DNA from: Escherichia coli
GTDB taxonomy: Bacteria; Pseudomonadota; Gammaproteobacteria; Enterobacterales; Enterobacteriaceae
DNA: 64,000 bases
Reading direction: 5' to 3' (one strand)
NCBI RefSeq assembly: GCF_003018115.1
Contig: NZ_CP027458.1
The position numbers are program-made. Within the stretch, counting starts at the first letter, position 1, and every line of letters starts with the position of its first letter. Below, one piece after another: positions 12,001 to 24,000 of this stretch.

Positions 12001-15000
12001 TTCCCCGGTGTTTTTTTTCTTCCCGGCAACAAGAAGCGTGTACGACGCGGTGTTAACGTGGATATTTCGGGTACTCATCCTGCTTTCTCCTCTCTCTGGT
12101 TTTCAGCCCCCATCATCGGTTGAGTTTCGGGAGCCGCCGCAGGCCACAGCGCGACAAGGGTGGCGCGACCGTTCCGGTCGCTGCAAACCCGGGGCAGAGC
12201 ATCTTTCGCTTAATTTCCTGCCCCTGATTATCATTAACAAATCAACAACATGGTCATAGGCTGACCGGCCTGTTGGCTGAAAAGCATCATCAGTGCACTC
12301 AAATCACTGGCTTTTTTTCTGATAACTGGCGTGTGATTTTCCACGCTATCCAACAGTTCCCCCAGTTCATCATTGATTTGCCATAACTGTTTCAATAGCG
12401 TTTCCGCATCCAGGCTGCTCTGGTATGCAAGATTTGCCTGAACAGCACGATTCTGCATGATGTCGATTTGTGCGATTGCGTCTTTCTGCTGATCGCCTGT
12501 TGGCTGATAAGTGGTGTTAAAAGAAAATGCGCTCATGTTTCATTCTCCTGTGTCTGATGTTTTCAGCCCCCATCATCTGTTGAGTTTCGGGAGCCGCGGT
12601 TTTGACGTTTTGCGGGGACCTGCTCTTTGTTCCCTCCGGTATTCACCATCACCTGTTTGAGAACCTTCGCCGCATGGGGCATCACTGCCACGGCCTGACG
12701 CACCTGTCCTGGGCAGAACGCAAAATTTTTTACCGGGTTTTGGGTAAAAAATTTTGTGGGCTGTTCATTTACCCTGGACAGTCAGTGCGGCAGGTTGTGG
12801 CTGTCTATGCCCCCGGCGACAGGGGCTTAAACAGGTGAATGGCACCGGACAGAACAATGGGCAGGGACCCGCCGCAACGACGTGAAGCGCGGTTTGCGAA
12901 ACGGCGTTGCCCCTTACATCCCGGCTGCCTTTTGCCGGGATGCCGGGAGCGCAGGCCACGGCGCGACAGAGGCGGCGCGACCGGAACGGTCGCTGCAAGC
13001 CCGGGGTTTCGCGTCAGGGATGGAAGCCCGCCAGGGCGGAGACAGCTCCGCTGGCTCCGTTCACGACAGCCCGCCCCGCCAGGGGGACGCCCGGAAAAGG
13101 CATAAGCAGGAGAACAACAAAACAGACAATAATCAGGGCAGCAGTAACAGTAATCAGAACAGGAGGAAAAAGAGAATAATCAAAGGGAAGGTGATGTGAT
13201 TTCTGACAGGTCATAAACAGAGAAGGCGGGGGAAAAGAACGGGCGCCGCAGGCGCACGTTCATTCCCGTTCCCTGAGGGAAACCGCCTTCCTGGCAGTCT
13301 GGTTGTTCACGCTGCTACAATGTCAGCAAGGAGAAAGGGGCCACCGGCGAACCAGCAGCCCCTTTATAAAGGCGCTTCAGTGCAGTCAGACCAGCATCAG
13401 CCCTGAAAAGGCGGGCCTGCGCCCGCCTCCAGGTTGCTACTTACCGCCGGATTCGTAAGCCATTGTTGCCGTAACTTCCCTGTATCCGTCCTTCAGCCGG
13501 ACTTCGCACAGGCGATTCCGGGTCAGGAGTGTGAATATCAACAACGTGCAGCACACGATTAATACGCACCAGATAAGGGCGTTTCCCGGTAGTTTCATGG
13601 CCTTCTTCTCCTTGCGCAAAGCGCGGTAAGAGGCTATCCTGATGTTGTCTAAGCATGCAGGGGCCTCGTGGGTTAATGAAAAATTAACTACGGGGCTTTT
13701 GTCCTTCTGCCACACAACACGGTAACAAACCACCTTCACGTCATGAGGCAGAAAGCCTCAAGCGCCGGGCACATCATAGCCCATATACCAGCACGCTGAC
13801 CACACTCACTTTCCCTGAAAATAATCCGGTCGTTCAGCCAGTTCACGGGCAATCAGTTCATCCGCAAACAGTGGTGCATGCCTGTTGATACGTTTCTCCA
13901 GATTCCGCCGCCGTACCGCAGCCTTACGTTCTTCGCTCCAGCGGCGCACCGGGCGGTCAGAAATAAAATCCAGACAGACCGCATACCCTGCTCCGGCAAC
14001 CCAGCGTGACATAACGGATGCCGGTGCAGGCTGCCCCGCCTCCACCACTTATGAAACCAGTTCATGCTCGCCAGGACAGGGATAAGGCAGTTTCCAGCGC
14101 AGTGAGTAACGCCACTTCACGCCGCCTCCCGGAGTTTGTTCGGCACCATCCACCGCTCCATCTCACGGACAGCGTGACCCGCCTCCCTTGCTGCCATACC
14201 TGCCTCTGCGATGACCTGCCAGAATGGCATATCCTGCCACTGCCAGCGTTCCATTCCGGCCAGTGACGGAAAACGCTCACCCCACTGCCAGAACAGGGTT
14301 TCCAGGTCATGCTCTGCCACCCGGTCACTCCAGCGTGCATACCAGCTTCCGACTGTTTCCGGCGAATGGAATGCCAGTTCGATTTCAGCCTGAGCGACCA
14401 GCGCCTGGTACGCACGGGCTTTCTGCTCTGCCTCCCTCGCCTGCTGGCGGCTGTACTTCTGCATGACCAGCGCGGATTTATGGCGACTGCGTTCCCTGAC
14501 ACGAAACCGCACCGACGGGAACAAGCGTTCTGCTGCATCGCCTGGAAGGGGAAGGAGGCAGACCTCGCCCTGTGTTTCAATCAGCACATCGATGGCATAC
14601 AGCCACTGAAGACGGTTGCCGTGCAGTTCTTCTGCGGTCAGGGACGGCATGAAAAATCGCAGGTCAGACAGCGATATCCTGCGGCTTCCGTTCAGACAGC
14701 GGAAAAACGCCCCCGCATACGGATATTCAGCCAGCGTGTTACCCTGATGGCGGCGTTTTTCGGTCTCCGCCACCGCCCGCCATGCGGCCTGTTGCTCTGT
14801 GCTGAGAGGAACCAGTGCCTGTGAACGTGCGCTCATGCCTGACCTCCTTCCGCCATCAGGATATGGATGATGTCACTGACGCTGTACCCCTGCGCGTCCA
14901 GTGACGCCGCCAGTGCCAGTGAATGGCTGACGGCTTCCGGTGCAAACCGCCGCTGTACCTGAACCACCGCAAACGGCTCACCACCGGCATTCACCAGAAC

Positions 15001-21000: not shown

Positions 21001-24000
21001 CCTCATCAGTTAAAAGCGCGTTTCAGTTCGAGTGTGCGGAGCACCTGCCCGAAGGCCGTGTTTTTCATGGCGGGGATGTGTACACCACGCCCCCGGCGAA
21101 AACTCCGGGCTATGTGTCGCCCGAAGGCTTTCAGCACGGGGTCAATTTCCGGCGCGGGGATGTCTTCGCGTCTGAAACGGGTATGACGACGGGGCTTTAC
21201 AGCCGCTGCGGAAGGTGAAACAATGCTTACAGTCATAAATGGATTCCTTATGACAGGTTGGTAACAGTGCCTTAAAGACTGTTCGCGCAGTCTCTTCGGC
21301 GTGGATTAAGCAGGTCCCTGACCTGCTTTTTTCATATCTGTATCTGACGTTCTCCGGTGTTTTCCTCCTTCTGTTCCTGCGTTCTCATTACCTGCCAGCC
21401 GGATGGCTGACAGAACAAATAAATGCGTATTGCCGGAGTCTGAAATAAATCCTGATTTTTAAAGAACATCACCCGTTGAGTTTCGGGAGCCGCGGTTTTG
21501 ACGTTTCGCGGGAACCTGCTGCTGTATTCCCTGTGGTATGAACTTCACCCGTTTGAGAACCTTCGCCGCAAGGGGCATCACTGCCACGGCCTGACGCACC
21601 TGTCCTGGGCAGAACGCAAAATTTTTTACCGGGTTTTAGGTAAAAAATTTTGTGGGCTGTTCATTTACCCTGGACAGTCAGTGCGGCAGGTTGTGGCTGT
21701 CTATGCCCCGGCGACAGGGACTCATACGGGTGTGTGGCACCCGGCAGGCAATGAGCAGGGACCCGCTGCAACGACGTGAAGCGCGGTTTGCGAAACGGCG
21801 TTGCCCCTTACATCCCGGCTGCCTTTTGCCGGGATGCCGGGAGCGCAGGCCACGGCGCGACAGAGGCGGCGCGACCGGAACGGTCGCTGCAAGCCCGGGG
21901 GTTCGCGTCAGGGATGGAAGCCCGCCAGGGCGGAGACAGCTCCGCTGGCTCCGTTCACGACAGCCCGCCCCGCCAGGGGGACGCCCGGAAAAGGCATAAA
22001 CAGGAGAGGAATGGAAAGAGGAAGAAGAAGAACAGTAACCACAGAAACATAACATCAGGAAAAAACATTCCGGACACATCACAAACGGGAAGGGTAACGG
22101 GCGACGCGCCAGCGTGGCCCGCATCCCTTCCGGCAGGCGCCAGCCTGCCAGGGGTTTTCGCGCGGGCTGACAGGCGGCCTCCACCGCCTGCCCTGTATCA
22201 CCTGTGCCTGCTGCCCTGAAGGATGTAGTGACCACCGAGGAAAACCGCCTGCTGATTCGCCACAAAATCACAGATTTCATCAACAATCTGCGCAGTGGTG
22301 AGCGGTTTCTGCCCCATTTCACGACGCCGCGCATTAATCACGGCCCTGTAATTACGCAGAATTTCGCGGGTTTCCGTGCTGATATTCATTACCCGTTCTC
22401 CCCGTCCAGCGCCTGACGCATCAACCGCATAATCTCACGTTCTTCCCTGACAAATGCGTCACCGTCGCCCCCGTTCTCGCTCCCTACAGCATGGAGGCGA
22501 TAAATTTCACTACCAGCCATCACCATCACTTTTTCCAGCAGCACCGCAGGGACTGTTACAAGACGGTTTACGCGCTTTTCCTCCATCAGTTCACGAACAA
22601 CGTCGTGAACAATGCTGACATCAGCACCATGCTCAAAGGCATCGTCCAGCCGCTGCATGACGGTTTCCAGCTCATCGTCTGTCAGACTCCAGTCCTGGGC
22701 TATGTGACGCACATCCCCACGGGTCAGCACCACGGCAAAAACGCATTCACTGTCCGGCACGTCTGTATCCAGCACTTCGCGGATAATTTCTTTAACAGTA
22801 CAGTACATGTTCTCGTCTCCTTTACAGGGGCGGCATCGCCGCCCCGTCCGTTAATCAGTCCAGTGCTGCGTAAATCGCGTTGCATTCGGGGTGAAATTCG
22901 ATGTGGCTCCACAACTGCGCATCGCGCATCCGGTACAGGTGTGTCAGTCCCGCATCACCGCTGTCGTGGTACAGCCACAACTGTCGGTTAATCACAAGGG
23001 AAGTCAGAATGATACCTGCGGCATCAGCACTCACAGTGCGGTCAAACCAGTTTTCACCGTTGACCAGATGAAAACGGTCGCCATCCGGCATCATGTAACC
23101 GCCACCGTCCGGCAGGCGGATGAAATGCCAGAAGCCTCCCTGATATTCCGGCATCATTTTTTGCGCCAGCGCGTACACATACGCCTCGGCATACAGAAAA
23201 TCGTTGCCAAACAGGTAAGGCAGAAAAGACAGACGGTCGCACTCTTCAACGTTCAGAGTGACAGGTTTCGCATACTGCATGGGATTTCCTCCGTTGTTCA
23301 CATATTCCGCGACACCGGGCGGTGCCGTGCCTCCATCTTTGCCGGGCCTGCAGGGTTGCAAGGGCGCAAGGGAAGCCGCAGCCTGACGCACACGGCTGAC
23401 GGGAGTTGGAGGGTGAGACCGCGAAATCTGAGCGGGTGAACGACCGGAAAATCACGGCAGACGGGAAGGAGGGACCGGGTGACCGCAGCGGTTCACCTTA
23501 CCTTGCAACCCGCCCGCAGAAGCCCGGCTACGATGGAGGCACGGCACAGCCCGCACACGACGCTGAGGCCACATAACTGAAAACCCACAAGGCCATGCCC
23601 CGCATGGCCGGGTAAAGCGGAGCCTGCGGCGACATCCTTTGTGCTCTGTCCGGGGACCGGCAGGAAAAGGCGGAGATTTTTCCCCGCCAGCGTCATCATT
23701 TCCGGATTTTTGCCAGGGCATCCGCCATGCTGCGAATTTCGGCCCGGGCTTCCCGGACCACCTCCCGCAGAACACCACGGTCAAACCACCGGCGGGGCGG
23801 TTCATCCGGTATACGCAGCACATCGCAGGCCAGCCCACTGGACAGGATATGCTCAATACAATCGCTGACCAGATACATTTCCACCGCCGAAAAACGTGCT
23901 CCCCGGTTCAGGATGGCATTGAGCACCACGGGCAGATTTTCGTCATCTTCATCAAGCCAGCAGGGGTGATCGCTTTCCTTCACAACCAGACGAAAGCGGC

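Follow-up and report, generated by a model that had tools for sequence, protein, structure and literature searches.

Probable class 1 single-stranded DNA promoters repeated in the leading region of an IncF plasmid of Escherichia coli

Three long, GC-rich repeats occur in the leading region of an IncF plasmid of Escherichia coli (contig NZ_CP027458.1), each of them in front of an operon, which raises the question of what these repeats are and what they do there. The window, i.e. the whole stretch of 64,000 nucleotides that was analysed, represents an IncF plasmid leading region and is 100% identical to plasmid pS19_141-a, whose annotation at this place lists traJ, traM, an SLT gene, psiA/psiB, ssb and hok. 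Rfam matches in the window are the traJ 5' UTR, FinP and sok.

The repeats are, with high confidence, class 1 single-stranded DNA (ssDNA) promoters (Frpo/ssi/ssp1) of the IncF leading region. Membership in this class is indicated by homology to F ssiD, F Frpo2 and ColIb-P9 ssi1-3, by a leading-region site near oriT with genes templated by the transferred strand, and by a long (~330 nt) imperfect stem-loop of the transferred strand. Homology, position, strand, hairpin, strand-biased folding and covariation are established here. This type of element is already known and the copies add little that is new. As modest additions we report a third class 1 copy before a DUF3560/methyltransferase operon, which is lacking in F, and a natural hairpin deletion before yubO. 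The locus would be a clean example of hairpin promoters giving conjugative plasmids a head start, with early products for SOS inhibition, ssDNA binding and anti-defence appearing before the incoming DNA is double-stranded; such early expression of leading genes is relevant to how antibiotic resistance spreads.

Repeats and their leading-region setting

Copies A, B and C are direct repeats of ~0.56-0.6 kb each (Table 1), and all three had been recognised in an earlier sequence-only reading. That reading described them as almost identical, which is correct for A and B (97.0% identity in an alignment of the whole repeats) but not for C, which shares 90.5% with A and 88.2% with B. It further described them as GC-rich and full of internal inverted repeats, and both descriptions hold: the repeats have 59.5-61% GC as compared to 56% in the leading region and 48% in the window, and each repeat contains one ~320-nt hairpin together with several small ones. 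Beyond A, B, C and a short remnant no additional copies were found in the window. A 36-nt palindrome at the hairpin apex occurs three times, with zero occurrences expected.

Table 1. Features of the repeat region and of the putative origin of transfer, in window coordinates.
Feature	Position	Strand	Remarks
oriT nic-like sequence GTAGTGTGTGGTGCTTT	9946-9962	+	2 mismatches to F nic region
Hairpin-less remnant, 99 nt	12096-12194	+	17 nt upstream of yubO ATG (12078)
Repeat copy A	12555-13150	+	Frpo1/ssp1a position, Frpo2-type hairpin
Copy A, equivalent of in vivo F Frpo2 fragment	12544-12824	+	95.4% identity to construct of PMC11541004
Copy A, main hairpin, unbranched, imperfect	12584-12902	+	from folding; ~129 pairs
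Copy A, upstream extension	12903-13150	+	66.5% GC; small local hairpins at 12916-12941 and 12977-12993
Repeat copy B	18188-18782	+	Frpo2/ssp1b orthologue
Copy B, putative functional core	18168-18457	+	97.2% to tested F Frpo2 fragment
Repeat copy C	~21452/21470-~22007	+	third class 1 copy, absent from F
Copy C, putative functional core	21467-21721	+	91.1% to tested fragment

The proposed identity of the repeats as Frpo/ssi elements is confirmed. Each of the three copies matches F Frpo1 and Frpo2 from end to end, with identities of 80-93.5% over 569 nt; the gene-proximal (left) ~350 nt agree with the published F ssiD/Frpo sequence, and the core can be aligned with ColIb-P9 ssi1-3. Copy A shares 93.5% identity with F Frpo2 and 88.2% with F Frpo1; the identity with F Frpo2 is 92.4% for copy B (across the whole repeat) and 92.2% for copy C. 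When the hairpins are compared alone, copies A and C share 94.0% and 91.5%, respectively, with F Frpo2. The copies are mosaic; the hairpins of A and B are closer to each other (98.1%) than those of F Frpo1 and Frpo2 (82.6%). At least 5000 plasmid records contain elements of this kind, at ~2.7 places each; the F plasmid carries two copies only. Minus-strand open reading frames over the repeats (13014-13214, 18647-18832 and 21678-22334) were treated as spurious because they are unannotated in RefSeq and lie in DNA of 60-70% GC.

A search with what we take to be the F nic sequence revealed a nic-like site on the + strand, between traM and the SLT gene. The + strand is hence the transferred strand and the template of the minus-strand leading genes, in agreement with the sequence-only reading. 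All genes downstream of the repeats are on the - strand, and the copies are uniformly oriented, each preceding an operon. Copy A is followed by a 100-aa ORF (yeiA in one record), the remnant, yubO and a DUF932 gene; copy B by ssb, a DUF905 gene, a ParB-like gene, psiB and psiA; and copy C by a 76-aa ORF, a DUF3560 gene and a class I SAM methyltransferase gene. The repeats had been said to end right at the gene blocks. This is the case for A and B, which start 18 and 17 nt, respectively, from the ATG codons of the 100-aa ORF (12536) and of ssb (18170), but not for C, which is separated by 215 nt from the ATG (21236) of its first gene, the 76-aa ORF.

Hairpin and putative promoter core

Folding of the plus strand, suggested earlier as a check, yielded an exceptional, strand-biased hairpin in each copy, formed as a single structure of ~320 nt by the gene-proximal part of the repeat. 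In copy A the apex is A/T-rich and located near position 12739, and the 3' arm carries an 8-nt bulge (TTCATTTA). Positions 12575-12925 of this copy fold at -109.4 kcal/mol, with z = -12.1 for the whole repeat. Among 1250 sliding windows across 25 kb, A, B and C are the three strongest folds, with ~-97 kcal/mol per 300 nt for the repeat windows versus a mean of -46.9 +/- 13.6. In 11 of 11 homologs folding favours the transferred strand over the complement, the difference being 7.6-16.3 kcal/mol. Mismatches in the arms of the transferred strand, counted in a mismatch-blind alignment, are more often G.T than A.C (104.5 vs. 32), whereas base composition predicts a ratio of just 1.05-1.55. Compensatory double changes were observed at 15 pairs across F-type, ColIb-P9, Serratia and insect-metagenome elements. 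Rfam contains no family for these repeat elements.

The segment of copy A that is equivalent to the F Frpo2 fragment comprises the leader, the 5' arm, the apex and the upper 3' arm. The F fragment gave early anti-CRISPR protection in vivo (PMC11541004), and because the segment of copy A corresponds to it, this segment must, judged by homology, hold the promoter of copy A. With 91-97% identity to the tested Frpo2 fragment, all three copies would be expected to be active. Copy C is the most diverged of them; the difference of ~9% in its core and the 215 nt to its first ORF count against the promoter reading.

In class 1 elements, the stem is described as reconstituting -35 and -10 boxes, with mispairing close to the -10. 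No sigma-70-like -35/-10 pair in the repeat region passed a consensus scan, no duplex promoter consensus was found on either strand, and terminator-like matches are at chance level (2 found vs. 1.5 expected). A position-weight scan delivered only weak -35/-10 candidates. The best weak pair in the functional core, TTGTGG-17-GACAGT (12754/12777), is located behind the A/T-rich apex with the 8-nt bulge in its spacer, and an A/T-rich UP-like tract is also present in the core; the exact hexamers and the start site of the copies are putative. TTGACG at 12602 is a better match to a -35 element but was set aside, since its pairing partner is missing from the in vivo construct. As consensus scanning yielded no convincing -35/-10 geometry, promoter function is argued here from homology to tested elements.

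Promoter model, alternative roles and unexplained parts

Promoter activity, its transience and priming are described in the literature on F and ColIb-P9 and are applied to the present copies by analogy. F Frpo1 and Frpo2 drive early expression of leading genes in vivo (PMC9849209), and the start sites of class 1 promoters in pESBL were confirmed by 5' RACE (PMC12672017). For F Frpo1/2 and the ColIb-P9 ssi elements, sigma-70 initiation is reported on ssDNA and not on duplex DNA, with early and transient expression in transconjugants. By this analogy, the + strand would enter the recipient during conjugation with its 5' end first, starting from the nick near 9.95 kb, and the gene-proximal ~320 nt of each repeat would fold back into a long imperfect hairpin that the host sigma-70 RNA polymerase reads as a duplex promoter. 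With the incoming strand as template, transcription would be directed toward oriT and would switch on three leading operons early and transiently in a burst, copy A serving the 100-aa ORF, yubO and the DUF932 gene, copy B ssb, the DUF905 and ParB-like genes, psiB and psiA, and copy C the 76-aa ORF and the DUF3560 and methyltransferase genes. The same transcripts may prime complementary-strand synthesis; once the strand is made duplex, the hairpin would be ironed out and the promoters turned off.

This last step can also be given the leading part. It is possible, and we hold it as a tentative view, that the repeats are mainly single-strand initiation signals for complementary-strand synthesis, with the RNA from the hairpin as primer and gene expression as a secondary effect. 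Frpo was originally isolated as ssiD and is so named in the reference set, reviews report primer synthesis in vitro, and the early conversion downstream of ssp1a/ssp1b is sensitive to rifampicin, in support of priming in vivo (bioRxiv 10.64898/2026.01.09.698686), although conversion is not abolished by the drug. Priming is compatible with a promoter role and does not exclude it, because one transcript can serve both, and in A, B and the remnant the leader meets a ribosome-binding site and an ATG 17-18 nt off, which fits expression.

It is improbable that the repeats act instead as structural roadblocks that delay complementary-strand synthesis, as the class 2 element ssp2 does in F. The repeats form very stable hairpins, at least equal in stability to the class 2-like hairpin at 23.3 kb, but the abrupt delay of conversion in F maps to ssp2, and loci downstream of ssp1a/ssp1b tend toward earlier, not later, conversion.

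Still less credit is given to a function of the structure at the RNA level, as a folded 5' leader or regulatory RNA of the minus-strand transcripts, or to an ordinary duplex promoter or terminator, with the DNA hairpin being incidental. Inverted repeats in DNA also fold in transcripts, the complement strand of copy A still reaches -98.4 kcal/mol, and a start in the upper hairpin would put the lower 5' arm and the leader into the transcript. On the other hand, the strand that folds better in all 11 homologs is the transferred and not the RNA-sense strand, the prevailing G.T mismatches turn into C.A in the transcript, and no Rfam RNA family is found at the repeats; the scans described above speak against a duplex promoter or terminator, and according to published work these promoters are inactive as duplex. 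That the copies represent passive scars of recombination or duplications of intergenic DNA, similar only via gene conversion and functionless here, is hardly credible: the mosaic copies, the decay demonstrated by the remnant and the documented use of Frpo repeats as substrates by which leading-region modules are gained and lost (PMC3817090) would agree with it, but compensatory changes keep the hairpin paired in lineages that have diverged, each copy stands before an operon in uniform orientation, and the elements are widespread among plasmid records.

The promoter model leaves the GC-rich extension of ~240 nt per repeat unexplained. It lies outside the functional construct, its similarity among the copies (89-96%) is about equal to that of the promoter part, and at least 5000 plasmid records show it conserved. 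In its first small hairpin the structure is kept while the stem sequence has changed across four element families, and one extension block is the only internal piece kept in the remnant. Extension blocks beside other hairpins were searched for in the window and none was found. A strand-specific structured element like the main hairpin was considered and rejected, as the extension has no strand bias and z values of only -1.5 to -3.0. That the extension is a separate functional module and not passenger DNA appears rather unlikely, but is worth stating; it could, for example, protect the hairpin promoter against RNA or DNA polymerases that come in from the operon upstream, or could alternatively be a second priming or protein-binding site.

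The sequence-only reading had also noted a short copy before yubO that retains the two ends of the repeat. The 95-aa ORF behind it is indeed YubO, but only the left end is retained: 42 nt of the gene-proximal end (12096-12137, corresponding to 12556-12597) are joined to an internal block of 57-58 nt from the right half (12138-12194, corresponding to 12950-13006 and 18583-18639), and the tail does not significantly resemble the right end of the repeat (score of 16 vs. 13.4 +/- 2.0 for shuffled sequences). About 352 nt are missing, including the whole hairpin. Folding of 151 nt revealed no long hairpin at the remnant, with a residual fold of -26.4 kcal/mol on the + strand vs. -30.6 on the complement. 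Because the whole hairpin is missing, the remnant is not a member of the class 1 ssDNA promoters; it is a hairpin-less scar and not a miniature element. The remnant itself is probably not a promoter, in which case yubO would be read through from copy A. Its junction contains a microhomology (CGGGAGCCGC against CGGGAGCGC) and occurs in ~70 of ~3830 matching plasmids; the remnant may have arisen by deletion of the hairpin between two short direct repeats at the hairpin base. This deletion could serve as a natural control, both for the need of yubO for a promoter of its own and for the role of the non-hairpin part.

Comparison with known systems

The class 2 (ssp2/'Frpo3') and class 3 (ssp3) elements of F and pESBL are also transferred-strand hairpin promoters, but share no sequence similarity with A, B and C, and ssp2 doubles as a replication roadblock. 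Candidate class 2/class 3 ssDNA promoters are located in the window at 23285-23667 and 25872-26189.

ssi1-ssi3 of the IncI1 plasmids ColIb-P9/pESBL are likewise three copies per leading region, each before an operon. They resemble the present copies in the architecture of the hairpin with its A/T-rich apex, in the conserved CCCTGGAC / TGTCCGGGG blocks and in a second, small hairpin that follows the main stem, but differ in that the core alone aligns, the lower stem is unlike and the downstream genes are partly different.

F Frpo1 (ssiD/ssp1a) precedes ygeA/ygeB, which are yubO and the DUF932 gene, and copy A lies at the corresponding place, between hok/sok and the genes proximal to oriT. The left flank of the remnant is identical to the Frpo1-yubO junction of F; whereas in F the full hairpin abuts yubO, here the 100-aa ORF and the remnant intervene. 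Despite its Frpo1 position, the hairpin of copy A shares only 84.9% identity with that of F Frpo1, compared to 98.1% with copy B.

The hairpins of copies A and C are of the type of F Frpo2 (ssp1b), but other operons lie downstream of them. Copy B is the positional orthologue of F Frpo2, which precedes ssb-yfjA-yfjB-psiB-psiA; downstream genes, leader and ribosome-binding site are alike, and the two elements show no essential difference.

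Position of the repeats in the leading region

The segment from 11.5 to 22.5 kb is 100% identical to the E. coli plasmid pS19_141-a (IncFIA/FIB/FIC, MOBF), and at an identity of ≥90% it has matches in more than 5000 enterobacterial plasmid records. In window coordinates the annotation of pS19_141-a lists traJ, traM and the SLT gene, followed without interruption by genes on the minus strand: DUF932, a 95-aa ORF, a 100-aa ORF, hok, psiA, psiB, a ParB-like gene, DUF905, ssb, a class I SAM methyltransferase, DUF3560 and a 76-aa ORF, with an antirestriction gene and a DNA methylase gene farther along. 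With the nic sequence of F as query, a nic-region-like sequence (GTAGTGTGTGGTGCTTT) was located between traM and the SLT gene, at 9946-9962 of the plus strand, which identifies the plus strand as the one transferred. Its 5' end enters first, with the 10-28 kb region leading, and it is the template for all the minus-strand leading genes, as the sequence-only reading had correctly reasoned.

A direct-repeat search of 10-24 kb returned three long copies of a Frpo-type repeat (A, B and C), each as two blocks, and a fourth, short locus (the remnant) matching two separate pieces of the repeat; a wider search found no additional copies within 9-34 kb. Chance origin is not an issue, since for the 36-nt apex palindrome by itself three occurrences were counted where none was expected. 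Over 569 aligned positions the identity is 97.0% for A/B, 90.5% for A/C and 88.2% for B/C, so the earlier description of the copies as near-identical holds for A and B but is generous for C. Their description as GC-rich is borne out by 59.5-61% GC, which exceeds the 48% of the window and the 56% of the leading region.

Between copy C and the 76-aa ORF there is a spacer of 215 nt (within 21237-21472), and the left-end variant of this copy, TTTTTAAAGAACATCACCC, is common to Serratia and insect-metagenome elements. Two unannotated minus-strand ORFs at this copy, one of 46 aa (21332-21472) beginning at its left end and one of 218 aa (21678-22334) overlapping its GC-rich half, are probably spurious. 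The transferred strand also has a moderately stable fold at 18880-19179 (-78 kcal/mol per 300 nt), which lies a short way upstream of copy B and overlaps the methyltransferase gene at its 3' end. The hok/sok locus (13437-13767) is located between copies A and B; its equivalent in F, flm, has been proposed as a guard against segment loss via inter-repeat recombination (Couturier et al.).

Coordinates of repeats, hairpins and reference features in the window
Feature	Coordinates	Basis or property
Repeat block 1 (A / B / C)	12544-12843 / 18177-18476 / 21440-21739	direct-repeat search
Repeat block 2 (A / B / C)	12855-13113 / 18488-18746 / 21749-22007	direct-repeat search
Copy A	about 12555-13150	shared boundaries from multiple alignments
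Copy B	about 18188-18782	shared boundaries from multiple alignments
Copy C	about 21452/21470-22007	shared boundaries from multiple alignments
Core in A	12544-12824	95.4% identity to tested Frpo2 fragment
Core in B	18168-18457	97.2% identity to tested Frpo2 fragment
Core in C	21467-21721	91.1% identity to tested Frpo2 fragment
Extension	12903-13150 in A, and equivalents	65-71% GC
traJ 5' UTR and FinP	9049-9158	Rfam, independent of annotation
SLT transglycosylase gene	9965-10555 (+)	pS19_141-a annotation
hok gene	13437-13559	between copies A and B
sok RNA	13596-13767	Rfam
Class 2 (ssp2 / 'Frpo3') ssDNA promoter candidate	23285-23667	transferred-strand hairpin, -105 kcal/mol
Class 3 (ssp3, M.EcoGIX-type) candidate	25872-26189	hairpin, -108 kcal/mol, no strand bias
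Strong hairpin	27160-27510	-98 kcal/mol, immediately upstream of DUF1281 gene (26250-27152)

Structure and predicted promoter core on the transferred strand

Folded as single-stranded DNA, the plus strand of copy A forms a single unbranched imperfect hairpin (12584-12902, about 129 pairs) with an A/T-rich apex (CAAAATTTTTTACC-loop-GGTAAAAAATTTTG) and, near the apex, an 8-nt bulge (TTCATTTA) in the 3' arm. The whole repeat folds at -173.5 kcal/mol versus -115.6 ± 4.8 for dinucleotide shuffles (z = -12.1); the internal inverted repeats described earlier are real and form this long hairpin and several small ones. In a homology-free scan of 9-34 kb (300-nt windows, DNA parameters, after the approach of Wen et al.) the repeats were the three most stable segments (-96.9, -96.1 and -97.8 kcal/mol; mean -46.9 ± 13.6).

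Whether selection acts on folding of the transferred strand in particular was tested in three ways on a set of 11 sequences, which comprised the three window copies, two from F, three from ColIb-P9, one from Serratia and two from insect metagenomes. The transferred strand was stabler than its complement in all 11, by 7.6-16.3 kcal/mol. When each sequence was aligned to its own reverse complement, with scoring blind to mismatch type, G.T oppositions totalled 104.5 versus 32 for A.C, with a G.T excess in every sequence tested and a G.T/A.C ratio of only 1.05-1.55 predicted from base composition; the sequences are related, so these counts are not a formal probability. RNAalifold recovered the core stem with 15 pairs changed on both sides, one of them being A-T in six sequences and G-C in five. 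Strand bias, G.T excess and covariation fit a structure that functions in the DNA strand as it enters.

The established class 1 ssDNA promoter mechanism is the best explanation of these features; start sites of class 1 promoters were confirmed by 5' RACE in pESBL (PMC12672017). Priming of the complementary strand is a second role of the same element rather than a true rival: transcripts from ssp1a and ssp1b (Frpo1 and Frpo2 of F) also prime complementary-strand synthesis in vivo, and the pronounced replication roadblock maps to ssp2, an unrelated class 2 element. Strand bias, covariation and the consistent position before operons all speak against an RNA-level structure, a duplex-DNA element or a passive scar; a transcript-level structure is further argued against since G.T on the DNA becomes C.A in the transcript.

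Samuel et al. obtained about 225-fold rescue from Cas9 with a Frpo-acrIIA4 construct, but only if it was placed in the leading region and on the transferred strand. The core of each copy is the part matched by the Frpo2 fragment in this construct. What suffices is therefore the leader, the 5' arm, the apex and the first ~85 nt of the 3' arm below the apex; neither the lower part of that arm nor the sequence to the right of it is needed in this assay. Convincing promoter hexamers could be assigned within the core neither by a consensus -35/-10 scan, which returned no hexamer pair, nor by our own scan, whose best candidate (TTGTGG-17-GACAGT at 12754/12777, directly past the A/T tract) is weak and has the 8-nt bulge within its spacer. 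A strongly conserved duplex block (CCCTGGAC / TGTCCGGGG) is possibly another recognition site. Promoter function of the window copies is predicted from their close homology to the tested elements.

Other hairpins occur farther along the leading region. Directly upstream of the antirestriction (KlcA/ArdB-like) gene (22855-23280) is the class 2 candidate, assigned from its 79% identity over 356 nt to the insect-metagenome 'Frpo' 4' of Samuel et al.; in F this type reportedly acts as a replication roadblock. The class 3 candidate, in the same position relative to the DNA methylase gene (25181-25864), overlaps a hypothetical ORF of 101 aa in the annotation (25941-26246), and the overlap makes this ORF a possible mis-call. 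The hairpin at the distal edge of the region, which resembles the insect Frpo*1/*3 candidates only weakly, may be a further ssDNA promoter.

The GC-rich extension and the remnant

The sole loose ends are the uncharacterised extension, i.e. the GC-rich part of each repeat beyond the main hairpin, and the remnant, a natural hairpin deletion. The extension lies upstream of the promoter relative to transcription, is conserved among the copies at 89-96%, about equal to the hairpin, and is present, at about 2.7 places in each, in at least 5000 plasmid records; no stated function was found for it in the accessible literature. Unlike the hairpin it is without strand bias and its folding signal is weak (z from -1.5 to -3.0); it contains small local hairpins. 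The first (12916-12941, CATCCCGGC...GCCGGGATG), directly after the main stem, is included in the ColIb-P9 ssi reference sequences; structure and position are kept while the stem is changed (insect GCCCCGGC, ColIb-P9 CACACC, Salmonella ATGCCGGC), which suggests that a structural feature is conserved beyond the minimal functional promoter. The second, GCGACCG-GAA-CGGTCGC, has the loop GAA in A (12977-12993) and C (21871-21887) and its reverse complement TTC in B (18610-18626) and the remnant (12165-12181). This is a hairpin-inversion allele, a signature of hairpin inversion or template switch; the adjacent bases also differ as a block (ACAGAGGCGG vs ACAAGGGTGG).

The short copy had been thought to keep the two ends of the repeat. 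Its left part (12096-12137) does match the left end (12556-12597), but the remainder (12138-12194) matches an internal extension block (12950-13006), closest to the copy B allele (96%), and no significant similarity to the right end follows 12194. The missing ~352 nt are flanked by short direct repeats that are nearly identical, CGGGAGCCGC and CGGGAGCGC, and the junction falls inside them, which suggests slippage deletion across the hairpin base. The entire hairpin is absent and the residual fold is weak (-26.4 kcal/mol for 151 nt); a normal leader and ribosome-binding site are still provided 17 nt upstream of the yubO ATG, in agreement with the claimed position before this gene. Since the remnant is hairpin-less and the order is copy A, 100-aa ORF (yeiA in one record), remnant, yubO, the latter is most likely transcribed by read-through from copy A. 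This gene order is a minority variant, its junction being found in about 70 of about 3830 matching plasmids. Leading-region modules are gained and lost via Frpo repeats (PMC3817090).

Comparison with F and other conjugative elements

In the F plasmid the same ~0.6 kb repeat is present twice, as Frpo1 directly upstream of the 95-aa ORF (yubO) and as Frpo2 directly upstream of ssb. All three window copies align end to end with both, and the comparison with F proposed in the sequence-only reading thus gave full-length homology; the published reference sequence of F ssiD (original Frpo) corresponds to ~350 nt at the gene-proximal end of every repeat (in A, about 12567-12917). The hairpins of A, B and C are all of the Frpo2 type, with 94.0%, 94.3% and 91.5% identity to Frpo2 and 84.9%, 86.2% and 75.6% to Frpo1, respectively. 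Copy B is the positional orthologue of Frpo2, whereas copy A has an Frpo2-type hairpin at the Frpo1 position. The A and B hairpins (12584-12902 vs 18217-18535) share 98.1% identity, as compared with only 82.6% for the F pair, which points to homogenisation by gene conversion or recombination between these copies, 5.6 kb apart, in this lineage. In F the full Frpo1 abuts yubO directly, with a left flank identical to that of the remnant. Copy C is without counterpart in F, and the 76-aa/DUF3560/methyltransferase module downstream of it is absent there; in IncI1 plasmids three copies per leading region are the norm. The repeats had been correctly recognised as a known element, of which Samuel et al. 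counted 13,089 homologues across 6,006 conjugative elements, which makes more than two for each.
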